From Candidatus Limnocylindrales bacterium (GTDB lineage Bacteria > Chloroflexota > Limnocylindria > Limnocylindrales > CSP1-4): a stretch of DNA of 61,612 nucleotides. Numbering within the stretch: the stretch's first letter is position 1; each line of letters starts with the position of its first letter. Location: positions 1-61,612 of the forward strand of contig JBBJNS010000001.1 in assembly GCA_037720745.1 (NCBI GenBank), in the 5' to 3' direction. The notes beneath the pieces are model-generated. The model searched no databases, was not told the origin of the DNA, and saw only the letters and a program-made list of their open reading frames with translations. This document shows, one piece after another, positions 1-10,018 of this stretch. A program made the translations under genes and the position numbers.

Positions 1-1303
1 TCAGGCTGTGCGAGTGATCGGTGAGCACCTGGTAGGCGTAACCACGCCGGCGCGCTGCCTCGGCCCAGACGTCGATGGGCTTGGAGCCGTCGGACCACTC
101 CGAGTGCGTGTGGCAATCGCCCTGGAGGTCGGAGACATCGACCAGCTCCGGCAGTCGACCCTCCCGGGCGGCCTCGATCTCCCCGCGGTCCTCCCTCAGC
201 TCCGGCGCGATGAAGGGCAGGCCCAGGAAGTCGTAGACCTCCTCCTCTGTGGCGAACGTCCGGCGCTCGGCGCCCTGCCCTGCCAGCGCCTCGCCGTCCT
301 CGCCGAGTCGCGTGAAGCCATGTTCGGAGAGGCTCCAGCCACGGTCGCGGGCGAGCTCACGCAAGCGCACGTTGTGATCCGCGGACCCGGTGAAGTGGAC
401 CAGGTACGTGCCCGTGGCGCCGAGCGGCATGGTCATCACGTCAAGCTGCGGGCCGCGCAGCAGCTGCACGGTGGTGCGCAGCTGTCCCAGCCGTCCGCCA
501 TGGCCACCCACGCGCTCAACGGCTGCCGAGGCATGCAGCGCTTCGATCAGATCCCGCCCGCGATCGGTCTCGACCAGCAGGTCCAGGTCGCCGACGGTCT
601 CGCGCCGTCGTCGATAGGATCCCGCGGGCACCACCGAGCGCACACCCGACACGCCGCCCAGCAGGATCCCCAGCCGCTCCAGGATCTCCGACGCCTGGCC
701 CAGGCGCATGCGCCGCGGCGGTCGCTTCCGCAGCTGCTCGAGGCCATCGATGATCTTCTTCTCCGTCCGCTCGCTGATGCCCCGCACCGCGCGCAGGCGT
801 CCTGCGCGAGCGGCGACCTCCAACTCGTCGAGTGAGGTGATGCCCAGCGCGCGCCACAGGTCGCCCGCTGTCCGTGGGCCCAGGCCCGGCACCGCCAGCA
901 GCGTCACTAGCGACGGCGGCACGTCGCGGCGCAGCCGCTCGTAGAAGCGCAGTCGCCCGGTGTCGGTCAACTCCGCGAGCTTGTCTGCGATGGCCTTGCC
1001 CACCCCGGTGAGCGCAGGAGGCGCGTTGCGCCGGTAAGCCGCAGCCACATCCGCCGGGCTGTGTGCGATGGAGTCGGCCGCGCGCCGGTAGGCGGCCGTC
1101 TTGAAGGGCAGCTCGCCCTGCAATTCCAGCATGTCCCCGATCTCGTAGAAGATCCGCGCCAGCTCGACGTTGGCCAGCAGCGGCACGTCGTCACCGCGCG
1201 AGGCGCGCGGCCGGGACTCATAGGGCGGATCGTCCGGATCGACCGTGACGACCTCGGCCGGCGCAGGGACCGGCGAGTCGGCCTCGCTGAGCGCTTCTTT
1301 CAC
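1..1303 (-). CDS. polX: DNA polymerase/3'-5' exonuclease PolX (pol-beta-like N-terminus plus the start of the PHP domain; the C-terminus runs off the window)
   Basis: Absent from the ORF track because it has no stop codon inside the window. Hand translation of the minus strand gives VKEALSE...PLLANVELARIFYEIGDMLELQGELPFKTAAYRRAADSI (HhH/polX N-terminus). It continues to ...GLPFIAPELREDRGEIEAAREGRLPELVDVSDLQGDCHTHSEWSDGSKPIDVWAEAARRRGYAYQVLTDHSHSL (PHP motif) at base 2. The GTG at 1303 overlaps the upstream stop (GTGA). Confidence 0.8.
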   Translation of the reverse strand, partial: MKEALSEADSPVPAPAEVVTVDPDDPPYESRPRASRGDDVPLLANVELARIFYEIGDMLELQGELPFKTAAYRRAADSIAHSPADVAAAYRRNAPPALTGVGKAIADKLAELTDTGRLRFYERLRRDVPPSLVTLLAVPGLGPRTAGDLWRALGITSLDELEVAARAGRLRAVRGISERTEKKIIDGLEQLRKRPPRRMRLGQASEILERLGILLGGVSGVRSVVPAGSYRRRRETVGDLDLLVETDRGRDLIEALHASAAVERVGGHGGRLGQLRTTVQLLRGPQLDVMTMPLGATGTYLVHFTGSADHNVRLRELARDRGWSLSEHGFTRLGEDGEALAGQGAERRTFATEEEVYDFLGLPFIAPELREDRGEIEAAREGRLPELVDVSDLQGDCHTHSEWSDGSKPIDVWAEAARRRGYAYQVLTDHSHSL

Positions 1304-2796
1304 GCCTCCGGCTTCACCGTCTCTCGCCTCGCCGCTGAGAGGGCCGGCTCATCCTCGGGCCGGAACTGCACGATCTCGCCGTCGCGCACCGTGGAGCCGG
1401 TGGGCACCGCGCCACCGGCCGCCACCTCCACGCGGTTCCGGCCCCGACGCTTGGCCAGATAGAGGGCGCGGTCGGCACCCTCGATCAGGGCCGCCACGTC
1501 CATGTCCTCTTGCACAGCCACGGCCACGCCCACCGAGACCGTCACGGGCCGCTCGATGCCCATCCGCTCGGGAGGCATCGCCTGGACTGCCGCTCGGACG
1601 CGCTCCGCCACCTCGACGGCCTGCGCCGCGCTGGCGCGGTGCAGGATGACGCTGAACTCCTCGCCGCCGTACCGGGCGGGGGTGTCCTCCGACCGGACGG
1701 TCGTGTAGATGGCCCCCGCCACGGCGCGCAGGACCGTGTCGCCCGTGGCGTGGCCGTAGCGATCGTTGAGGTTCTTGAAGCGGTCGATATCGATCATCAG
1801 GATGCCCAGCGTGTCACCAGCGCGTCGCCGAGGCCGGACGATGGAGATGATCTCGTCGAAGTAGCGCCGATTGGGCAGCCCGGTCAGGGCGTCGATGTTG
1901 GCGCGAGCCTCGGCCTCCTCCAACGCGTAGACGCGAGCCAAGGCGGCCGAGACCTCGCCCGACGCCCAGGTGAGAAGCCGCCGGTCGAGTTCGCTCCAGG
2001 AGTCGCGCGTCCGCTTGGAGAGCATCAGGGCGCCCACGAAGCGCGCGTCCGCGATGAGCGGCGCCGCCAGCGTGTGGGGCAAGCCGTATCCGGAGCGGAC
2101 GCGACGGGCCACCTCATCGGCCGCCTCCTGGAAGCGCAGGGCTGGCGCGACGATCGGCGGCACGCCCTCCATCCGTGCCCCGGTCGGTAAGGTCATGGCG
2201 AGATCGGCGGGGGTCAGCGACGCGCCGCCGTCGGCCGGCGCGCCCAGGATGTCCGGGCGCAGCAACGTACGCGAGGCCGGCACGGAGGCGCTCGCCGCCA
2301 CGAGCGTCACCTCGAGCGTGCCATCGGCCTCTGCCCGGCGAGCGACCACCACGTGGTCCGCACCCGAACTGAAGCGAAGCTCCTCCACGATGGCCTGCAC
2401 CACGGAATCCCCCGAGACGGAGCGTGAGAGCCCGTGGAGGATGCGCGTGAAGCTCGCGTCCCGGACCATCCGGCGGCGTCCGGGGCCAACCAGTCTGCGC
2501 TGCACGAGCACGACGGCCACGATGCCGGCCACGACCGGAGCCTGGAGGAGTTCGATCTCCGTGGGCGGCCCGTCAAGCAGCGACACGGTGGTGAGGCCGG
2601 CCATCAGCACGAGCAGGATGGCCAGGGCCACCCGGGCGCGCGGCAGCCGACGTTCCTCCCGTGCCGCGGCCGGAAGAGGAGGCATGGCAGTCTGGTCGTG
2701 CTGGGTCACGATCTGGTCGTGCTGGGTCACGATGTGCGGAGCATGGCGCGTATCGCCGTAGAGTGTAGAAAGCACGGTCCGCAGGGCCGCCTCCAC
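1300..2796 (-). CDS. Membrane-anchored GAF-GGDEF diguanylate cyclase
   Basis: 498-aa ORF with an N-terminal TM segment (VALAILLVLMAGLTTVSLL) and a central GAF-like region. The GGDEF domain reads DALTGLPNRRYF..IDIDRFKNLNDRYGHATGD..RYGGEEFSVIL..ADRALYLAKRRGRNRV. The start is uncertain: GTG 2796 or ATG 2685 (M38). Confidence 0.85.
   Translation of the reverse strand: MEAALRTVLSTLYGDTRHAPHIVTQHDQIVTQHDQTAMPPLPAAAREERRLPRARVALAILLVLMAGLTTVSLLDGPPTEIELLQAPVVAGIVAVVLVQRRLVGPGRRRMVRDASFTRILHGLSRSVSGDSVVQAIVEELRFSSGADHVVVARRAEADGTLEVTLVAASASVPASRTLLRPDILGAPADGGASLTPADLAMTLPTGARMEGVPPIVAPALRFQEAADEVARRVRSGYGLPHTLAAPLIADARFVGALMLSKRTRDSWSELDRRLLTWASGEVSAALARVYALEEAEARANIDALTGLPNRRYFDEIISIVRPRRRAGDTLGILMIDIDRFKNLNDRYGHATGDTVLRAVAGAIYTTVRSEDTPARYGGEEFSVILHRASAAQAVEVAERVRAAVQAMPPERMGIERPVTVSVGVAVAVQEDMDVAALIEGADRALYLAKRRGRNRVEVAAGGAVPTGSTVRDGEIVQFRPEDEPALSAARRETVKPEA
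2691..2732. repeat. Perfect 2 x 21-bp tandem duplication (tctggtcgtgctgggtcacga); each unit contains the dyad TCGTG-N6-CACGA
   Basis: Read directly: 2691-2711 is identical to 2712-2732. If the cyclase starts at 2796, the repeat encodes IVTQHDQ x2. If it starts at 2685, the repeat lies in the divergent promoter region. Confidence 0.9.
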
Positions 2797-2818
2797 GCTC
2801 CGATCGGGGTGCCACGCG

Positions 2819-4084
2819 ATGCTCTATCTCAGCCAGGCCATCGGCCGGCCGGTGCTCGACCGGCAGGGCGAGCGACTGGGCAAGGTGGCCGACCTGATCG
2901 TGGCCCTTGGTGATCCGTACCCGCCGGTCACCGGGCTCGTCATCTCCACCGGGCGGCGGCGCATCTTCCTCCCCTGGAGCGACGTGGCCTCCTTTGACGA
3001 GGGGGGCGCGCGGCTGCGCACGAGGCGCCTGGACATCGACCGCTTCCAGCAGCGGCCCAACGAGCTGCTGCTCTTCCTGGACCTTCAGGACAAGCAGATC
3101 GTTGACATCGACGGGCGCAAGGTGGTGCGCGTCAACGACCTGCGGCTCGACCACATCGAGGGGCGCCTGCACCTGGTGGCCGTGGATGTGGGTGCGGCCG
3201 GGATCCTGCGCCGGCTGGGCATCGAAGGGCCGTTTCGCACCCTCGCGCGGAACATCCGCCTGGATGTGCCCGAGCGCTACATCGACTGGGAGGACGTCGA
3301 CCCGGTCGAGAGCTCCATCGCCTCGATCCGCCTGCGCGTCCCGCACCAGGGCCTGCGCGAGCTGCATCCGGCCGACCTGGCCTCCATCATCGACGAGCTC
3401 GCCCCGCGCGATCGTGCCGGCATCCTGGCTTCACTGGATGACGAGGCGGCGGCCGATGCCATCGAGGAGATGGAGCCGGAGACGCAGGTCGAGGTCATGG
3501 AGGACCTTAGTCCGGAGCGCGCGGCCGACATCCTGGAGGAGATGAGCCCCGACGACGCGGCCGACCTCGTGGCGGACCTCTCTGAGGCCGCGCGGCGCCA
3601 GATCCTGCCGCTCATGGAACGCGACGAGGCCGACGAGGTCCGTCAGCTGCTGGGCTACCCGGAGGACTCGGCGGGCGGCATCATGACCACCGAGTTCATC
3701 GCTATCCCGGAGCACTTGACGGCAGCCCAGACCATCGAGCGGTTGCGCGAGCTGGAGCCCAACGCGGAGACCATCTATTACATCTACGTGGTGGGCGAGG
3801 ACGGTCGACTGTCCGGGGTGCTTTCCCTGCGCGACCTGATCGTCGCCCAGCCGGCGGCGCGAGTGATCGACTTCATGCAGCGCGAGCCGGTGGCGGTCGG
3901 TCTGCTCACCGACCATGAGGAGGTCGCCCAAGTAGTGGCGCGGTACAACCTGCTGGCCGTGCCGGTGGTGGACGATGAGGGGCGCATGGCGGGCATCGTG
4001 ACCGTGGACGATGCCATCGACATGGTCCTGCCGGGCGCCTGGAAGCGACGTCTGCCGCGGCTCTTCAGCCGGAGCGAGCAGTAG
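2819..4084 (+). CDS. Soluble PRC-barrel + MgtE N-terminal domain + CBS-pair protein (MgtE cytosolic sensor module without the MgtE membrane domain)
   Basis: 421 aa. The N-terminus has PRC-barrel-like repeats (IGRPVLDRQGERLGKVADLIV; DKQIVDIDGRKVVRVNDLRL). An acidic MgtE_N region follows (DLASIIDELAPRDRAGILASLDDEAAADAIEEMEPETQVEVMEDLSPERAADILEEMSPDDAADLVADL). A CBS pair follows (GGIMTTEFIAI..; LLAVPVVDDEGRMAGIVTVDDAIDMV). The ORF ends right after the CBS pair and has no TM helices. Confidence 0.8.
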   Translation: MLYLSQAIGRPVLDRQGERLGKVADLIVALGDPYPPVTGLVISTGRRRIFLPWSDVASFDEGGARLRTRRLDIDRFQQRPNELLLFLDLQDKQIVDIDGRKVVRVNDLRLDHIEGRLHLVAVDVGAAGILRRLGIEGPFRTLARNIRLDVPERYIDWEDVDPVESSIASIRLRVPHQGLRELHPADLASIIDELAPRDRAGILASLDDEAAADAIEEMEPETQVEVMEDLSPERAADILEEMSPDDAADLVADLSEAARRQILPLMERDEADEVRQLLGYPEDSAGGIMTTEFIAIPEHLTAAQTIERLRELEPNAETIYYIYVVGEDGRLSGVLSLRDLIVAQPAARVIDFMQREPVAVGLLTDHEEVAQVVARYNLLAVPVVDDEGRMAGIVTVDDAIDMVLPGAWKRRLPRLFSRSEQ

Positions 4085-4105
4085 TGGGGGGTCCTGTGCG
4101 AAGCG

Positions 4106-5470
4106 ATGGGTGATCCGGTGCGGCGGCGGCTGCCCGCGGCGCCGCGCATCGGTGTGCTGGCGCGGCTGCGCGACCGCCTCGAGCAGGGCGAGCTCCTGCG
4201 ACTTCGTTCGCGCTTCCGCCGGCGTCGCTTCTTCGCGTTTTTGGCCGTGTTGGGTCCCGGCTTGATCGCGGGCATCGCGGGCAACGACGCGGGCGGCATC
4301 ACCACCTACTCCGTGATGGGCGCCGAGACGGGCTACGCGCTGCTCTGGCTGTTCCCCATCACGCTGCTGATGCTGGCCGTGGTGCAGGAGATGGCCGCGC
4401 GACTTGGCGTCGTGACCGGGCAGGGCCTGTCCGACCTGATCCGCGACTCCTTCGGCGTGCGCTGGACGGCCTTCGCCATGCTCGTGCTGCTGATCGCCAA
4501 CTTGGCCAATACGGTGGCCAACTTCGCCGGTGCCTCCGCCGCGCTGGACATCTTTGGGGTGCCCCGTCTGGTGACCGTGCCCGTGGTGGCGGTGGCCATC
4601 TGGGCGCTGGTCATCTTCGCCTCGTACCGCATCCTGGAACGGATCTTCCTGTCCATCAGCCTCATCTTCCTGACCTACGTGATCGCGGCCTTCCTTGTGC
4701 GGCCCGACTGGGGTGAGGTGGGGGCGGCGATCCTGTCGCCCAGCCTGTCCGTGCCGGGCGTGCCCATCGCCACCACGCTTCTGCTGGCGGTAGCCGTGGT
4801 GGGTACGACCATCACACCGTACATGCAGTTCTACCTCCAGTCGGCCGTGGCAGAGAAGGGCATCGACGAGGAGGAGCTGCGGCTGGAGCAGGCCGACGCG
4901 GTGGTCGGCGCCGTCTGGACGAACACCGTGGCGCTGTTCATCGTGGTGGCCACGGCGGGCGCGCTGTTCGGCAGCGGCATCGCGCTGGAAAGCGCCGGCC
5001 AGGCTGCCGAGGCCTTGCGGCCAGTGGCGGGCGACCTGTCAGGCGCGCTATTCGCGGTGGGCCTCTTCGGAGCGAGCGTCCTGGCCGCCACGATCATGCC
5101 CATCAGCACGGCCTACGTGATCTGCGAGGCCTTCGGCTGGGAGTCGGGCGTGGGCAAGCCGTTCCGTGACGCGCCGGCGTTCTTCATCATCTACAGCTTC
5201 GTGCTCTTCTTCGGGGCGGCCGTGATGCTGCTCCCCGGGCTGGACCTGATCGGATTGATCGTGGCCAGCCAGAATCTCCAGGGACTGCTGCTGCCCGTGG
5301 TGCTCATCTTCATGCTGCTGCTGGTCAACGACCGGCGGCTGCTCGGCCGGCACGTCAACGGCCGCTGGCGCAACGTCCTTGCCGTGGGCGCCATCGGCGT
5401 GGTCGTGGTGCTGGACGTGGCGCTGCTCGGTGCAGGCCTGCTGGGAGCCGTGGGCATCGACCTCGGCTGA
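4106..5470 (+). CDS. Nramp-related divalent-cation transporter with a non-canonical binding site (NrmT/NRMT-like, candidate Mg2+ transporter)
   Basis: 454 aa, polytopic. The TM1 region LGPGLIAGIAGNDAGGITTYS aligns to the canonical Nramp ..DPGN.. motif, which here reads DAGG. The TM6 region VVGTTITPYMQFYLQS aligns to the canonical GAxVMPHNLYLHS, giving the changes A->T, M->T and H->Y. The gene lies 21 nt downstream of the MgtE-N/CBS gene. Confidence 0.8.
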   Translation: MGDPVRRRLPAAPRIGVLARLRDRLEQGELLRLRSRFRRRRFFAFLAVLGPGLIAGIAGNDAGGITTYSVMGAETGYALLWLFPITLLMLAVVQEMAARLGVVTGQGLSDLIRDSFGVRWTAFAMLVLLIANLANTVANFAGASAALDIFGVPRLVTVPVVAVAIWALVIFASYRILERIFLSISLIFLTYVIAAFLVRPDWGEVGAAILSPSLSVPGVPIATTLLLAVAVVGTTITPYMQFYLQSAVAEKGIDEEELRLEQADAVVGAVWTNTVALFIVVATAGALFGSGIALESAGQAAEALRPVAGDLSGALFAVGLFGASVLAATIMPISTAYVICEAFGWESGVGKPFRDAPAFFIIYSFVLFFGAAVMLLPGLDLIGLIVASQNLQGLLLPVVLIFMLLLVNDRRLLGRHVNGRWRNVLAVGAIGVVVVLDVALLGAGLLGAVGIDLG

Positions 5471-5605
5471 GGCGGCTCTGGCGGTGGAGTGGCGTATCGG
5501 GCGGCGTTCCCGTCAAATGTCCGCCACGTGGACGCTGATCGATATCTTGGCGCTCCACGAGGTCGACTCGAGATCCGAATAAGCCGCTTACGGCCACCAT
5601 CTTCA

Positions 5606-5632
5606 TGACATCACAATTGACTTCTGATGTCA
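5606..5632. promoter_or_regulatory. Inverted repeat TGACATCA-N11-TGATGTCA spanning the start codon of the RHH gene (candidate autoregulatory operator) in a locally AT-richer stretch
   Basis: Read directly: 5606-5613 tgacatca and 5625-5632 tgatgtca are exact reverse complements. TTGACT at 5617-5622 lies between them, and the ATG at 5627 lies inside the right arm. Confidence 0.45.
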
Positions 5633-5989
5633 CGCCACTATGCTACTCGTATGCCCGATGACCGACCGTCGCGAACGGTCTTTCCGCTTCGTTTCGAGAG
5701 TGAGCGTACCCGCGAGCTGCTTCGCCTGGTCGCGCAGCGCCAGGGCACTTCGATGAACCGCCTCGCCGAAGAGCTCATCGCGCGCGAACTCGAGGTGTTG
5801 GCTCTGGGACTCGAGCTCAGCCTGTCACGGACGGTGGAGCTGCTGCGCAGCTATCGAGGCGATCTCCGGGCCGACGCTTGGTCCGAGTTCGCCGAGGCAG
5901 AGTCGCTGCCTGAGCCGGTGCAAGGCCGGCGGACTCACCCCGACGCCGACCACTACGGTGTCGGTCGCGCGTTCGCCGTCGAGGCTTGA
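5627..5989 (+). CDS. Ribbon-helix-helix (Arc/CopG-like) antitoxin-type protein partnered with Fic
   Basis: 120 aa. The RHH-like N-terminus reads TVFPLRFESERTRELLRLVAQRQGTSMNRLAEELIAREL. The stop overlaps the fic start (ATGA at 5986-5989). Confidence 0.6.
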   Translation: MSRHYATRMPDDRPSRTVFPLRFESERTRELLRLVAQRQGTSMNRLAEELIARELEVLALGLELSLSRTVELLRSYRGDLRADAWSEFAEAESLPEPVQGRRTHPDADHYGVGRAFAVEA

Positions 5990-6648
5990 AGCACGGCCCC
6001 TGCCCCGACTGGGACGAGGACGATCCGAGGGATGCCCCCAAGATCGTCGCCAACATCAAGACCCTCTGGCCCACTATCGCGGCTGACGCCACCTCTCGCC
6101 CCGTACCCGCGCTCCAGCGTGCCCTCGACTGGCATCGGTCGATCTACGCCGGCGTCGCGGTCCCGCTACCCGACTATGTGGGCAACATCCGCGACACGGA
6201 CCCTGCTCATCCCTGCCTGATCGACTACGAAGTCAGGGTGGGACGAGCGGATGGCGTTCTGGCCAGAGACGTGCCGGCTGCCCTCGACTCGTTCTTCCGG
6301 GCAGCCGCTTCGGTCACCTCGAGCCTGGATGCAGCGATCCCCCGAAACGGTCAAGAATGGACACCGGCCCTGGTCTCGGCCGTGCTGCGACTCTGCGCCC
6401 TGGCGCACGGGGAGTGGCTCCGCATGCATCCGTTCGCCAACGGCAACGGGCGGACGGCTCGAGTCCTGGCCAACTGGCTCGCCGTCCGCTACGGACTCCC
6501 GCCCTTCGTACGGATCAAGCCGCGCCCGGCTGACGTGCTCTTCGCGGGTGCCGCCCAGATGTCCATGCGAGGGGATCACCGCGCGACCGAGGCCATGTTC
6601 GCCGCGATGCTTCAGGACGCGCTGGCACCTGTGGCTTCGGGTCCGTGA
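5986..6648 (+). CDS. Fic/DOC family protein (candidate AMPylating toxin)
   Basis: 220 aa. The Fic core motif is HPFANGNGRTAR, a variant of HxFx(D/E)GNGRxxR with N at the D/E position. Confidence 0.85.
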   Translation: MKHGPCPDWDEDDPRDAPKIVANIKTLWPTIAADATSRPVPALQRALDWHRSIYAGVAVPLPDYVGNIRDTDPAHPCLIDYEVRVGRADGVLARDVPAALDSFFRAAASVTSSLDAAIPRNGQEWTPALVSAVLRLCALAHGEWLRMHPFANGNGRTARVLANWLAVRYGLPPFVRIKPRPADVLFAGAAQMSMRGDHRATEAMFAAMLQDALAPVASGP

Positions 6649-6656
6649 AGCCGATC

Positions 6657-6678
6657 TCAGGCCGACCTCAGGCCGACC
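6657..6678. repeat. Perfect 2 x 11-bp tandem duplication (tcaggccgacc) that includes the stop codon of the MBL-rhodanese gene
   Basis: Read directly: 6657-6667 is identical to 6668-6678. The second copy begins with the minus-strand TGA at 6668-6670. Confidence 0.85.
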
Positions 6679-8068
6679 GCGCCTCACCGGTCTGGACCGG
6701 GTACCCCGCAGCGCGCCAGTCCGGGAGTCCGCCGCGCACTGCGCTGACGTCGCTGAAACCGGCCTGGCGGAGCAAGCCTGCGGCGACCGAGCTGCGATAG
6801 CCGCTGGCGCAGATGGCGGCGATGGGACGGTCGCGCGGCAGCTCGGCCAGTCGCTCGGGCAGATCGCCCGCGTGGAGATGCCGAGCGCCGGGGACGTGGC
6901 CCGTCTCGAACTCGGAGGCCTGGCGGACGTCGATGACGAGCATCTCCGGCTCGCGGCTGAGCTGGGCGCGAAGCTCATCCACGCTGATGGACGCGCCCGC
7001 CTCCACGTGCCCGCCGCTCGCCCGCCACGCAGCCAGGCCACCTTCGAGGTACCCCGCCACGTTCTCGTGCCCGATGCGCAGCGCCTGGCGGATCTGCCCG
7101 TCCCAGTCGTCCGCGGAGTCCAGCAGCAGGATCAAGGGGCGGTCGTGCGGCACGACCCAGCCCAGCCAGGTGCCGAAGGAGCTCCCCGCCGGGATGGATA
7201 GCGAACCGGGGACGTGGCCCGACGCGTAAGCGCTCGGCGAGCGGGCATCGATGATCAGCCCCTCCCCTGCCAGCAGGACAGGCACAGCGTCCACGCCAAG
7301 GGGCTGCGGCGCCGGCACGCCACCCAAGGCAGCCGGCCCCGCCTGGTTGGTCGGGCGCATGCGAGCGAAGTAGCGCGGGAAGGCAGGCTGGTCGGCCAGC
7401 AGTGCGCGCACGAATGCCTCCACCTCATCGATGGCCAGCAGCGGATCGTGGCGTCGCTCGAAGCCCACGGTCGACCAGGGGGTGGTGGCGATGTCCTTGG
7501 AGCACAGGGATCCACCGCCGTGCGTGGGCAACACCATCACGGAGTCCTCGTGGGGCAGCAGTCGGTCGTGCAGCGAGGCGTGCATCTGCCGTGCGTACGC
7601 TTGGGCGTGATCGGCGCCCAGCAGATCGGTCCGGCCCACGGCTCCCACCAACAGCGAGCCGCCAGTGAAGAGCAGCTGCGGCTCATCGGCGCGGGAGCGA
7701 TCTGCCACGGAGTAGCTCAGATGCTCAGGCGTGTGACCGGGTGTCTCGAGGACGCGAAAACGGAGCGAGCCCACGTCGAAGATCTCATCCCCACGGACGG
7801 CGCGATGAGAGTGGCGCAGCTCCGCCCCCGCGGCATGCACGTGCTCGGCGCCGGTCGTATCGGCCAGCTCGCGGGCGCCCGAGACGTAGTCGTTGTGCAG
7901 GTGCGTCTCTACGACATGGCTGATGCGCAGGCCACGCGTCCTGGCCGCGTCCAGGTAGAGGTCCACGTCCCGCCGCGGATCGACCACGGCGGCCACCCCA
8001 GCGGCGTCATCGATGACCAGCGCGCTGATGTGACCGAGCCCCTCGATCACGAACTGACGCAACTCCAT
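6668..8068 (-). CDS. MBL-fold persulfide-dioxygenase-like hydrolase fused to two rhodanese domains
   Basis: 466 aa. MBL motifs are HLHNDYVSG and TPGHTPEH. There are two C-terminal rhodanese domains, the last carrying the active-site loop CASGYRSS. Confidence 0.85.
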   Translation of the reverse strand: MELRQFVIEGLGHISALVIDDAAGVAAVVDPRRDVDLYLDAARTRGLRISHVVETHLHNDYVSGARELADTTGAEHVHAAGAELRHSHRAVRGDEIFDVGSLRFRVLETPGHTPEHLSYSVADRSRADEPQLLFTGGSLLVGAVGRTDLLGADHAQAYARQMHASLHDRLLPHEDSVMVLPTHGGGSLCSKDIATTPWSTVGFERRHDPLLAIDEVEAFVRALLADQPAFPRYFARMRPTNQAGPAALGGVPAPQPLGVDAVPVLLAGEGLIIDARSPSAYASGHVPGSLSIPAGSSFGTWLGWVVPHDRPLILLLDSADDWDGQIRQALRIGHENVAGYLEGGLAAWRASGGHVEAGASISVDELRAQLSREPEMLVIDVRQASEFETGHVPGARHLHAGDLPERLAELPRDRPIAAICASGYRSSVAAGLLRQAGFSDVSAVRGGLPDWRAAGYPVQTGEARSA

Positions 8069-8076
8069 GAGAAACG

Positions 8077-8082
8077 AGGATA
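8077..8082 (-). promoter_or_regulatory. -10-like TATCCT, 8 nt upstream of ATG 8068 (leaderless-type promoter)
   Basis: Forward aggata at 8077-8082. There is no Shine-Dalgarno sequence between it and the start codon. Confidence 0.4.
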
Positions 8083-8145
8083 ACCGCCGATGGGATCTTG
8101 CGGGACCGTCGGTGGAGGCTGATCAGGCGCCGCGAACGGGACGCC

Positions 8146-8313
8146 TCAGTCGCTCCGCTGGGAGGACTTCGGCTCACGCCTCAGGACACGCCTCACCGCA
8201 TGCATACCCTTGGACAGCTGCGCACGGAAGAAGATCGGCACGGCCACAAGACCGGCGATGAGCGCCTGGATGATGAGGCTGCCGGAAGCGGCATCGAGGT
8301 ATGCGAAGACCAT
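8146..8313 (-). CDS. Unlisted small membrane protein (55 aa)
   Basis: Hand translation gives MVFAYLDAASGSLIIQALIAGLVAVPIFFRAQLSKGMHAVRRVLRREPKSSQRSD*. It has one hydrophobic helix followed by a basic tail, and GC is high at third codon positions. It is below the size cutoff of the ORF track. It sits in an otherwise unexplained 336-nt gap. Confidence 0.35.
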   Translation of the reverse strand: MVFAYLDAASGSLIIQALIAGLVAVPIFFRAQLSKGMHAVRRVLRREPKSSQRSD

Positions 8314-8404
8314 CGGTATCCATCCCTTCTGGAAGTGCCGCTACCCTCTCCGGCGCGCGGCGTCCGCGCAGGATAGCAGCAGCTTCGCGCGCCATCTTCC
8401 CTTT

Positions 8405-10018
8405 TCAGGGCGATAGCGAGTCCCCGGCGGGCTCAGCATCCAACGGAGGCACATCGGGAGGCGTCGCGACCAAGTCGGTCACGTCGACGAAGTCGTAGGC
8501 GCGGTCGTTATTCGGCCACGTGAAGCTGCGGTCCGTCAATAGCGGCAGGTCTGCTCCAAAGTATCGGGAGAACAGGAGCCGGAATGTATTGACGGAAGTG
8601 ATCGATGGGTGAACGGCGTCTCCACCCACGCCAGGAAGATAGAGCGCGTTAAGGATACCGAACCGTACTTGGAGGTACTCCGCCTCGCGGCCCTCCCAAG
8701 CGATGTCCTTCCGAGCGAACGGTCCCTCGTCCCCTTGGACGATGATGATGGGCTGCTCTTCCGGGGGTCCCGCCAGGAGGTGCTCGATGGTCGCCTTGAT
8801 GCGTCCGTCCAGATAGGCCAACTGTCCGCCGTACAGTCGACTTTCCGGCTCCGAATCCTCCTCGGCCTTGGTCACAAGACGTCCATCCGCCCGAAAGACA
8901 TACGGCGAGTGGGGCAAGAGCACGTGCGCGAAGACGAACTTGGGGCCAGGGTCGTCCCGCAGCTCGGCCAGCTGACGGAACTGGAAGTCCGCGATGCGCA
9001 CATGCCGCTCGCGGAGGGTGAGTGCTTCGTCCTGGTGGCCGAGCAGACGGAGGAAGGCTGGCACGATCGTCGTGTTGCGCATCACCGCCGAGAATTCCGA
9101 CTCGGCATCGTAGGAGCGGGACTCATCCGCAAGCGGGCTGGTACGAGTCGGGTCGAACCAAGACCCGAGATGGATGTAGCGATACCCCTGCGCCTGCATG
9201 AACCGGCCGACCGCGTGGTCGCGCACCATCTGACGCGCCGGAGTCCGGTCGCCGGTATCTCGACCGTAGCGCGCCGTCAAGTCGTCCAGGTACGTCATGT
9301 TAAGCGTCGCTGCCAGCGAGAAGTCCGTGGCCCGGTAGTTGGCGTGGCTCTCTGTGGCCACTTGGAACCCCTGGTCGCTCAGCCACTCAGGAAGGTCGCT
9401 GTCGACACCGAACTGGTAGTCAAGACTCCACTCGGATCCGTAGCGATCGAAGACGAGGTAGTAGATGTCGCGCTGCTGTGAGGTGGCATCACCATCACCC
9501 TGAGTAGCATCCGGCGTGTCGCCTTGGGACGCGTCCGTCGAACGCTGTATCTCTCGCGGCACGATGGTGATCAGGACTAGGAGCACGAGGACCGATGCGA
9601 CCACATTCAGGAACGTCGTGATGCGGGGCAGCAGATGCCGGGCCTTATAGGCAAGCAGTGTTGCCAACATGATGAACGCACCCCATGCCACCAGCTGGGT
9701 ACGCAGACCCAGACCGATGGACGCCAGGAATGCCTCCGCGTGGCCATAGGCAGAGAAGGCGACGACCATGGCGGAGGTCACGATCGCGGCACGGGAGAGG
9801 CTCTTGAGGACGATGCCGAGAACGAGCAGAACGGTCGCGGCCGCCAGGACAGCTCCGACCAGAGGCTGGAGGACCTCGCTCGCCGTCAGCTCGGTGATAT
9901 TCGAGGCGTATAGGAACAGCACCGCGTAAGAAGCCAAGAGGAGTGGGTGCAGCGGCACGCGGCCAAGAAGCGAGCGATAAGTGTCGGGTGCATCGATCGA
10001 TCCGCCGCTGGTATCCAT
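8405..10018 (-). CDS. Membrane-anchored sulfatase-like (alkaline-phosphatase superfamily) phosphotransferase/hydrolase, LtaS/EptA-like architecture
   Basis: N-terminal multi-TM region followed by an extracytoplasmic domain with YYLVFDRYG, ANYRATDFSLAATL, HVLLPHSPYVF and IIVQGDEGP. The ORF track extends to 10120, but that overlaps the upstream gene. ATG 10018 (M35) is preceded by a -10-like box. Confidence 0.7.
   Translation of the reverse strand: MDTSGGSIDAPDTYRSLLGRVPLHPLLLASYAVLFLYASNITELTASEVLQPLVGAVLAAATVLLVLGIVLKSLSRAAIVTSAMVVAFSAYGHAEAFLASIGLGLRTQLVAWGAFIMLATLLAYKARHLLPRITTFLNVVASVLVLLVLITIVPREIQRSTDASQGDTPDATQGDGDATSQQRDIYYLVFDRYGSEWSLDYQFGVDSDLPEWLSDQGFQVATESHANYRATDFSLAATLNMTYLDDLTARYGRDTGDRTPARQMVRDHAVGRFMQAQGYRYIHLGSWFDPTRTSPLADESRSYDAESEFSAVMRNTTIVPAFLRLLGHQDEALTLRERHVRIADFQFRQLAELRDDPGPKFVFAHVLLPHSPYVFRADGRLVTKAEEDSEPESRLYGGQLAYLDGRIKATIEHLLAGPPEEQPIIIVQGDEGPFARKDIAWEGREAEYLQVRFGILNALYLPGVGGDAVHPSITSVNTFRLLFSRYFGADLPLLTDRSFTWPNNDRAYDFVDVTDLVATPPDVPPLDAEPAGDSLSP

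Follow-up and report, generated by a model that had tools for sequence, protein, structure and literature searches.

The locus at positions 2819 to 5470 of the window, the 61,612-nucleotide stretch of DNA analysed here, is almost certainly an operon of two genes of the kind published as 'MgtE-like fragment + NrmT/NRMT', in which a soluble MgtE-like protein is encoded directly upstream of an Nramp-related transporter (NRMT). The original prediction implied that such a partnership was new, but Shin et al. (2014, PLoS Genet 10:e1004429, PMC4072509) had already reported that most nrmT genes adjoin a gene for a homolog of the MgtE cytoplasmic domain. Both the gene pair and its order are the same in their loci (C. 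acetobutylicum Ca_c0685 and Ca_c3329; A. capsulatum ACP2976/2977) and in the window, whereas the host of the window pair, judging by how its nearest homologues are named, is a soil Chloroflexota (Ca. Limnocylindrales-like). For the function of the soluble partner, we give an even chance to the reading, drawn from sequence comparison, that it is a detached MgtE-type cytoplasmic sensor providing post-translational feedback on the NRMT.

Organization of the locus

The partner ORF (421 aa) has exactly the coordinates given for it before, and the NRMT ORF (454 aa) follows in the same reading frame. The features of the locus are as follows.

2687..2818, no strand assigned: probable divergent promoter region between the partner gene and a GAF-GGDEF gene, if the latter starts at the ATG at 2686
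2819..4084, + strand: gene for the soluble NRMT partner (421 aa), with PRC double barrel, MgtE_N domain, CBS pair and polybasic tail but without membrane domain
2819..3298, + strand: N-terminal PRC-type double beta-barrel module, aa 1-160 (Pfam PRC, AF2)
3344..3673, + strand: MgtE_N domain, aa 176-285 (Pfam, alignment to TtMgtE)
3674..4027, + strand: CBS pair, aa 286-403 (alignment to TtMgtE)
4028..4081, + strand: short polybasic C-terminal tail, VLPGAWKRRLPRLFSRSEQ, aligned at the position of the acidic MgtE plug helix
4085..4105, + strand: intergenic spacer of 21 nt, between the TAG stop and an in-frame ATG
4106..5470, + strand: NRMT gene (454 aa), SLC11/Nramp-related Mg2+ transporter by homology (Pfam Nramp, EleNRMT match)
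4286..4297, + strand: alpha-1 binding-site motif D61-A-G-G64, canonical D-P-G-N (alignment with DraNramp and EleNRMT)
4805..4822, + strand: alpha-6 binding-site motif T234-T-I-T237-P-Y239, canonical A-x-x-M-P-H (alignment with DraNramp and EleNRMT)

Because the two ORFs share a frame, a single gene split by a stop codon or translated by read-through was considered. This was rejected since in relatives the two genes overlap or differ in frame, their spacing ranging between -4 and about 250 nt. The earlier description of the partner as PRC, MgtE_N and CBS domains without a membrane domain, 21 nt upstream of the transporter, agrees with the Pfam matches and the ORF coordinates.

The transporter belongs to the NRMT clade

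Sequence matches place the window transporter within the NRMT clade, nearer to the characterized NRMT than to canonical Nramps. The ORF matches Pfam Nramp (PF01566) with an E value of 9.3e-89 over profile positions 1-356 of 357. Against the Eggerthella lenta NRMT structure 7QIA the match has an E value of 5.5e-113 (381 bits), as compared to at most 97 bits with any MntH/Nramp structure and E values of 1e-26 or weaker with canonical Nramps. The NCBIfam MntH score is 139 bits, against a cut-off of 430.

The NRMT signature is defined as DxxG-TxxA/T (PMC8806188). In the window protein, D61-A-G-G64 aligns with DPGN of DraNramp and DAGG of EleNRMT, and T234-T-I-T237 provides the second part of the signature. 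Alignment with these two proteins thus gives the same motif readings as the original prediction, DAGG for DPGN and TxxTPY for AxxMPH, and it does not restore the metal ligands, with Gly64 and Thr237 at the Asn and Met positions. Together with the E values, it also bears out the assignment to the class of Nramp-related Mg2+ transporters that have lost both residues.

EleNRMT (Ramanadane et al., 2022, eLife 11:e74589; 7QIA, 7QIC, 7QJI, 7QJJ) shows about 45% identity to the window NRMT over the full length. The two share D-A-G-G on alpha-1, the first alpha-6 Thr and the alpha-10 Gln, and both have lost the alpha-6b histidines. They differ at the Met position (Thr237 in the window protein, Ala in EleNRMT; the signature allows either), at the His position (Tyr and Trp, respectively) and at the alpha-3 Glu, which is E133 in EleNRMT and Asn139 in the window NRMT. 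A partner protein is not discussed in the EleNRMT paper. Canonical Nramp/MntH proteins (DraNramp, ScaDMT, EcoDMT) have the SLC11 fold, the binding-site Asp and the alpha-10 Gln in common with the window NRMT but differ by the replacements Asn to Gly, Ala to Thr, Met to Thr and His to Tyr, and the identity with DraNramp is only about 27%. Homologues of the pair are named 'Mn2+/Fe2+ NRAMP transporter' and 'magnesium transporter' in databases.

The proton pathway was inspected at the alpha-6b histidines and the alpha-3 Glu. All of these are lost in the window protein, with Y239 and L244 replacing the two histidines and Asn139 replacing the Glu, which suggests that transport is not coupled to protons. 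EleNRMT carries Mn2+ besides Mg2+, and the first alpha-6 Thr is required for its Mg2+ transport (PMC8806188). By homology with EleNRMT, the window NRMT probably takes up Mg2+ in largely hydrated form, accepts Mn2+ as well, and works without proton coupling.

The partner is a stand-alone MgtE N+CBS module

Pfam detected PRC (PF05239, E 1.6e-13, two stretches), MgtE_N (E 1.8e-27, aa 182-283) and CBS (E 1.4e-18, two stretches) in the partner. The MgtE membrane domain (PF01769) gave no match in this protein, which stops 18 aa past the CBS pair, and the five-helix pore with the Mg1 aspartate (Tt D432), a hallmark of MgtE channels, is absent from it. Correspondingly, the NCBIfam mgtE model scored below its cut-off, matching profile positions 26-251 of 450, and the cytosolic domain of TtMgtE (2YVY) matched with an E value of 8.8e-52.

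An AF2 model built from a deep alignment reached a pLDDT of 87.5 and a pTM of 0.74; a shallow alignment (at least 78% identity) had left aa 70-178 unmodelled. Foldseek superimposed the N+CBS part of the model on Mg2+-bound TtMgtE (2YVY) with an rmsd of 1.7 Å and a TM score of 0.87. When the whole model was used, MgtE and CBS matches dominated, and the search was uninformative on the PRC module. In the model, this module consists of strands at 11-66 and 82-123 and helices at 126-145 (pLDDT about 90), followed by a disordered linker (aa 162-174).

The window partner is thus a stand-alone MgtE N+CBS module. Its N domain and CBS pair are homologous to those of TtMgtE (2YVX, 2YVY, 5X9H), but it lacks the plug helix, the transmembrane pore and the Mg1, Mg2 and Mg3 sites of MgtE, and it carries an extra N-terminal PRC double barrel. 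In TtMgtE the sensor is part of the channel, whereas the window partner forms a polypeptide of its own and is paired with a carrier of the LeuT fold. The PRC barrel, CBS pair and tail, all three present in the window partner, go unmentioned in the description of the MgtE-like fragment by Shin et al. (2014).

Conservation of the gene pair

We surveyed 80 NRMT loci from many phyla, taken from a collection with one genome per species; 79 of these had usable flanks. The 80 loci provide about 65 species pairs of partner and NRMT, and the genome collection contains more than 593 loci. All 80 encode DxxG-TxxA/T, with the alpha-1 Asp and Gly and the first alpha-6 Thr invariant. The alpha-6 motif is TxxA in 52 loci and TxxT in 28, and the His position is occupied by Trp in 60 and Tyr in 20. 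The partner gene adjoins the NRMT gene in 74 of the 79 evaluable loci, spread over more than 10 phyla, so that the pair is indeed conserved across genomes, a point on which the original prediction depended. In 70 of the 79, the partner lies immediately upstream on the same strand, as in the window. This arrangement is far beyond chance.

Of 69 complete partners, 68 contain the PRC double-barrel module, and a comparison of 68 partners from many phyla shows Q93, D96, N106, D107 and R131 of this module to be invariant. A PRC-only ORF abuts the NRMT gene in an Actinomycetota locus. Fusions of sensor and transporter, which would provide Rosetta-stone evidence, were found neither in the 80 loci nor among the top 240 homologues. 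Long 'NRMT' ORFs of L072 and L077 were rejected as fusions, since they result from mechanical extension into GC-rich upstream DNA, where the partner occupies another frame.

Some observations would suit a different view, namely that the two proteins are co-expressed without direct interaction, the partner acting elsewhere or being the slowly decaying remnant of an ancestral PRC-MgtE channel gene of full length. NRMTs function alone, and five loci with intact flanks have no partner. In the close relative L081 about 9.5 kb separates the two genes, although its partner was rejected as a true 'orphan' because the pair is split by a 9.5-kb insertion. Furthermore, a degenerate MgtE membrane domain persists in a minority of partners, all of them long, and suggests that these derive from a full channel. 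Even so, we regard the absence of interaction as improbable in view of the adjacency across so many phyla. Decay is also at odds with a conserved partner length of about 420 aa, the many invariant residues, the specifically remodelled tail motif described below, and a PRC-module family of 1061 clusters at 50% identity (E ≤ 1e-10).

Mg2+ sites, ATP site and tail of the partner

The Mg2+ sites of MgtE were taken as defined in PMC5882242. In the alignment, MgtE_N residues D213, D245 and D249 of the partner are equivalent to the Mg7, Mg4 and Mg6 ligands Tt E59, D91 and D95, and CBS-pair residues D398 and D401 are equivalent to Tt D247 and D250. Among 68 partners (Tt numbering), D91 is kept in 58, D95 in 67 and D247 in 60, and an Asp or Glu is found at the E59 column in 62 and at the D250 column in 60. 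The Mg5 ligand D226, on the other hand, is Asn in the window partner and in 42 of the 68. Also missing are Mg2 and Mg3, the sites through which sensor and pore are coupled in MgtE.

For the ATP site of TtMgtE, the contacts Y170, R187, D188, N203 and F227 were used (PMC5529423); the F227A mutation abolishes ATP binding in TtMgtE (PMC5529423). Partner residues Y321, R338 and D339 correspond to Y170, R187 and D188, which contact the phosphates and the ribose. The adenine side differs: N203 is replaced by Gln354 and the adenine-stacking F227 by Leu378, and the latter column is Leu in 54 of 68 partners. Since D226 is Asn in most partners and F227 is Leu in even more of them, the ATP dependence of MgtE sensing probably is not carried over to the partner.

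The tail has changed as well. The acidic plug residues Tt E258 and D259 align with K409 and R410 of the window partner, and Lys or Arg occupies these columns in 51 and 44 of the 68 partners, respectively. Glu-Asp is kept at the plug columns by only three or four partners, including all three long, TM-bearing ones (L065, L067 and L079).

The acidic character of the N domain, with a net charge of -24 (family median -23) and many conserved Asp and Glu residues, would also fit a cytoplasmic metal chaperone or buffer that takes Mg2+ or Mn2+ at the inner mouth of the transporter without gating it. Shin et al. (2014; PMC4072509) offered a chaperone role as alternative to the feedback regulation that they proposed for the nrmT-adjacent gene. 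In the sole co-expression test, performed with the A. capsulatum pair in B. subtilis, Mg2+ rescue was unchanged by the partner (PMC4072509), as such a role would allow. We nevertheless find it a poor candidate. A chaperone seems unnecessary with free cellular Mg2+ in the millimolar range, conservation falls specifically on the ligands that bridge the two domains and drive the conformational switch of MgtE, and the predicted fold of the partner matches the closed sensor state.

Upstream region and M-box control

No M-box or other riboswitch was found by Rfam at E ≤ 1 in positions 1-9000 of the window, and a scan of 2400-6100 for sigma-70 promoters and intrinsic terminators gave no signal of relevance to the operon. 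Upstream of the partner gene, a stretch of 21 nt is perfectly duplicated in tandem at 2691-2733. Among 11 relatives, four have an M-box riboswitch upstream of the partner gene, and because of this position it controls both genes. Two of these M-box loci (Clostridium L014 and L023) encode a DAGG/TTITPY site identical to that of the window NRMT. In loci for NrmT-associated MgtE-like fragments the M-box is frequent but not universal, and the window locus is without one.

The missing M-box, together with a divergent GAF-GGDEF gene whose adjacency to the partner gene is kept in close relatives, is compatible with a partner that responds not to Mg2+ but to another signal, for instance Mn2+ or else a nucleotide or second messenger at the CBS pair, the transporter then being chiefly a regulated importer of Mn2+ or mixed divalent ions. 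The A. capsulatum NrmT-like protein, which has an adjacent partner, acted as a Mn2+ importer and rescued a Mn2+ transport defect (PMC4072509), and Mn2+ transport by EleNRMT agrees with this possibility. Conservation of the phosphate and ribose contacts without those to adenine hints at a different ligand. Against this stand the Mg2+ control of a binding site identical to the window's in Clostridium, the invariance of the alpha-6 Thr needed for Mg2+ transport by EleNRMT, and the conserved Mg-site ligands of the sensor, which make a non-Mg2+ signal unlikely in our estimate.

Proposed mechanism

According to the favoured reading, a sensor for Mg2+ acting on the NRMT, high cytoplasmic Mg2+ would cause ions to bridge the acidic N domain and the CBS pair, as at the Mg4, Mg6 and Mg7 sites of MgtE, and this would lock the partner module in a compact form. 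The compact form may then inhibit the NRMT at its cytoplasmic face, which would amount to rapid post-translational feedback. Since the partner is not covalently joined to a membrane domain, we infer that the PRC double barrel and the polybasic tail could hold it at the NRMT or at the inner membrane face. Both NrmT (PMC4072509) and EleNRMT (eLife 11:e74589) transport Mg2+ without partner, in agreement with a regulatory protein rather than a subunit on which transport depends. As the window has no M-box riboswitch, the partner may be the main Mg2+-responsive control there.

More tentatively, and with somewhat less than an even chance, the PRC-MgtE_N-CBS protein can be seen as a detachable, trans-acting Mg2+ gate that is docked via PRC module and tail and in which closure of the N/CBS clamp blocks the cytoplasmic exit. 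The tail would then stand in, with its charge reversed, for the acidic plug helix of MgtE and dock to the NRMT or the inner leaflet, and the long TM-bearing partners would be evolutionary intermediates. Several of the results given above speak against a sensor mechanism: the lack of an effect of co-expression and the Mn2+ import in the A. capsulatum case, the five loci without partner and the one separated pair, the changed Mg5 and adenine-site residues in most partners, and the missing Mg2 and Mg3 sites.

Implications

NRMTs form a fourth class of bacterial Mg2+ importers. As they are not coupled to protons, their uptake, driven by the membrane potential, needs a brake, and the conserved partner is the obvious candidate. 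If the trans-acting gate exists, it would be the first instance of a sensor module of the MgtE type that has become a protein of its own and controls a transporter of an unrelated fold. The window pair itself adds nothing categorical to the known NRMT-partner pairs. Our literature search found no later work on the partner and none on a PRC barrel combined with MgtE; the near-universal PRC module, the conserved Mg2+ ligands with the polybasic tail, and the partners with a degenerate TM domain are absent from the searchable literature. Such pairs would be better annotated as NRMT and NRMT-associated MgtE-like sensor than by their current database names. The comparative data, with a universal docking-type PRC module, retained Mg2+ ligands, a charge-reversed tail and degenerate-TM intermediates, sharpen the question of whether and how the partner acts on this class of transporters.

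Gene pair and transporter identity

The partner gene and the NRMT gene share one frame and are separated by a 21-nt spacer:

2819..4084, + strand, partner gene, 421-aa ORF
4106..5470, + strand, NRMT gene, 454-aa ORF

ORF calls, Pfam and NCBIfam reproduced the positions, the gap and the domain content of the original prediction. Pfam assigns to the partner two stretches of PRC, MgtE_N at aa 182-283 and a pair of CBS domains, with the C-terminus 18 residues past that pair. The NCBIfam mgtE profile matches its cytosolic half only (profile positions 26-251 of 450), with a score below the cut-off. The second ORF matches Nramp over its full length (E 9.3e-89). Its closest solved relative is Eggerthella lenta NRMT (EleNRMT, 7QIA; E 5.5e-113, 381 bits), and all canonical Nramp/MntH structures scored ≤97 bits.

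The NRMT clade has the signature DxxG-TxxA/T, as opposed to DxxN-A/CxxM in canonical Nramps; the α6 Thr is required for Mg2+ transport, and the proton-pathway histidines are gone (Ramanadane et al., 2022, PMC8806188). Alignment with DraNramp and EleNRMT upheld the motifs predicted earlier, the DPGN site reading DAGG (D61-A-G-G64) and the AxxMPH site TxxTPY (T234-T-I-T237-P-Y239). The window protein conforms to the clade in DxxG, in TxxT and in the loss of the two α6b histidines, which are replaced by Tyr and Leu, and it retains the α10 Gln. Among 80 NRMT loci sampled from a one-genome-per-species collection, DxxG was present in all, TxxA in 52 and TxxT in 28, so that Thr at the Met position is a common variant. 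Strings identical to those of the window, DAGG and TTITPY, occur in two Clostridium loci with operons behind M-box Mg2+ riboswitches, which ties this variant to Mg2+. Of 120 close homologs, 110 have the α3 Glu (E133 in EleNRMT), as do 64 of 80 diverse NRMTs; the window protein (Asn139, window 4520-4522) and the five relatives nearest to it (P0121-P0125) have Asn instead. Asn139 is a lineage-specific oddity at a position otherwise conserved as Glu across nearly all SLC11 proteins.

Conservation of the pairing

The two-gene arrangement on which the original prediction depended is conserved across genomes. One of the 80 loci had no upstream DNA and was left out; the partner adjoins NRMT in 74 of the 79 evaluable loci, immediately 5' on the same strand in 70 and immediately 3' in four, and five loci have no partner despite intact flanks. 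The pairing is real, and paired loci occur in, among others, Chloroflexota, Nitrospirota, Clostridia, Syntrophales, Omnitrophota, Bacteroidota, Acidobacteriota, Patescibacteria and a bin labelled Nanoarchaeota. Its implied novelty did not survive: the pairing was already described for NrmT by Shin et al. (2014), with whom our survey independently agrees, and the mechanistic idea is the one published then. Literature searches found no work on the partner after that paper, and it goes unmentioned in the EleNRMT paper.

An M-box riboswitch lies 5' of the partner gene in four of 11 relatives scanned; none was found in window positions 1-9000 (no Rfam hit at E<=1), nor in those of the scanned relatives that belong to Chloroflexota. 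The window shares the gene pair of the NrmT plus MgtE-like-fragment operons but not the riboswitch, and is a riboswitch-less Chloroflexota addition to this known family.

A less likely alternative is that the partner and NRMT do not interact directly. In a close relative (L081/L083, JGI contig Ga0604940_0000072) they lie on the same strand about 9.5 kb apart, so co-transcription is not obligatory; the operon was split there by an inserted block with glycosyltransferase, sulfotransferase, ScmC and PqqD-like genes. An Actinomycetota MAG without a full partner, in which a 201-aa PRC-barrel-only ORF (L031:7202-7807) overlaps the NRMT gene end, lends slight support to a link between PRC and NRMT.

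Three NRMT loci came from bins labelled as Nanoarchaeota (L012) or Patescibacteria/Saccharimonadales (L050, L068), with the partner adjacent in L012 and L068 and no upstream DNA in L050. NRMT would not be expected in genomes this reduced; horizontal transfer or mis-binning could account for it.

Architecture of the partner protein

The cytosolic domain of Thermus thermophilus MgtE matches partner residues 173-403 (E 8.8e-52). An AF2 model built from a diverse alignment was confident (mean pLDDT 87.5, pTM 0.74) and predicts an N-terminal double β-barrel module (aa 1-160), a disordered linker (aa 162-174), and then a helical N domain, the CBS pair and a short tail helix. The modeled N and CBS domains superimpose on 2YVY, the cytosolic domain of MgtE with Mg2+ bound, at 1.7 Å (TM 0.87).

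By sequence, the PRC module is universal in partners (68 of 69 complete ones), with Q93, D96, N106, D107 and R131 invariant across phyla; the Shin et al. paper (PMC4072509) nowhere mentions PRC, barrel or CBS. The PRC region alone as query retrieved 1061 clusters at 50% identity (E<=1e-10), with full-length sizes of mostly 410-457 aa and a minority of ~593-656 aa. In a Spirochaetota MAG (L020:4423-5977) the regions coding for PRC, MgtE_N and CBS each have a different frame, reflecting either a pseudogene or assembly indel errors.

Less probably, the partner has a different ligand, or the system a Mn focus; the transporter of A. capsulatum was able to rescue a Mn2+ defect (Shin et al., PMC4072509). 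With the inter-domain Mg2+ sites defined as in TtMgtE (PMC5882242), the ligands are conserved across 68 partners: D91 is kept in 58, D95 in 67 and D247 in 60, the E59 and D250 positions are D/E in 62 and 60, respectively, and Asn stands at the D226 position in most. The net charge of the N domain is -24. The phosphate/ribose contacts of the ATP site are largely present (Y170 in 56/68, R187 as R/K in 59/68, D188 as D/E in 52/68), but the adenine contacts are not kept, F227 being Leu in 54 of 68 and N203 variable. Since F227A abolishes ATP binding in TtMgtE (PMC5529423), the ATP dependence of MgtE probably does not carry over.

In MgtE, plug residues E258 and D259 make sites Mg2 and Mg3, coupling sensor to pore. 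In short partners they are Lys/Arg, inside the motif LPxAW[KR][KR]RxP[KR]. The acidic plug is retained, with ~215 extra residues, in three long partners (632-696 aa; Eubacteriales, Coriobacteriia):

L065:4081-5979, long partner
L067:3909-5999, long partner
L079:4053-5981, long partner

L065 and L079 lie behind M-box riboswitches, and some 13 of the 150 top-ranked PRC-region representatives fall in this length class. The extra residues align to the MgtE membrane domain (E 3e-54, chain positions 45-466), with pore Asp432 aligned to Met and a Pfam MgtE value of just 0.0045. The region resembles a degenerate membrane anchor, and the long partners are plausibly an evolutionary intermediate.

Neighbouring genes

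1300-2796, - strand, GAF-GGDEF diguanylate cyclase gene, divergent from the partner gene
5627-5989, + strand, 120-aa ORF, no Pfam match
5986-6648, + strand, Fic/DOC-domain gene, overlapping the 120-aa ORF by 4 nt
6668-8068, - strand, metallo-β-lactamase-fold domain fused to two rhodanese domains

Two relatives, L081 and L082, carry a homologous GAF-GGDEF gene (39-46% identity) 5' of the partner; this could be mere synteny or a functional link to c-di-GMP signalling. Between this gene and the partner gene, a 21-nt sequence (TCTGGTCGTGCTGGGTCACGA) is perfectly duplicated in tandem (2691-2733); it falls between the two genes if ATG 2686 is the GGDEF start codon, and otherwise is part of a longer N-terminus, where it encodes the heptapeptide IVTQHDQ twice. 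The 120-aa ORF and the Fic/DOC gene look like a Fic toxin-antitoxin-type pair, with a sigma-70-like site just upstream (5617-5644). The 6668-8068 product has the architecture of persulfide dioxygenase-rhodanese fusions.

Proposed regulation of NRMT by the partner

It is established what both proteins are, that their linkage is conserved, that Mg2+ riboswitches control the pair in some lineages and that the inter-domain ligands are retained. The partner would close on Mg2+, like the MgtE cytosolic domain, and inhibit NRMT in the closed state, with the PRC barrel and basic tail supplying the attachment given by the covalent link in MgtE. We consider it an even bet that the partner is a regulatory gate of NRMT. 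Against this reading stand the NRMT loci without a partner and the lone co-expression experiment, in which the A. capsulatum pair left rescue unchanged (Shin et al., PMC4072509), albeit in a heterologous setting and with a Mn-preferring homolog. NrmT complements Mg2+ transport without the partner (Shin et al., PMC4072509). Less probably, the partner is a chaperone or buffer. The comparative details obtained here (PRC module, ligands, tail and long forms) make the regulatory question raised in 2014 more directly testable.
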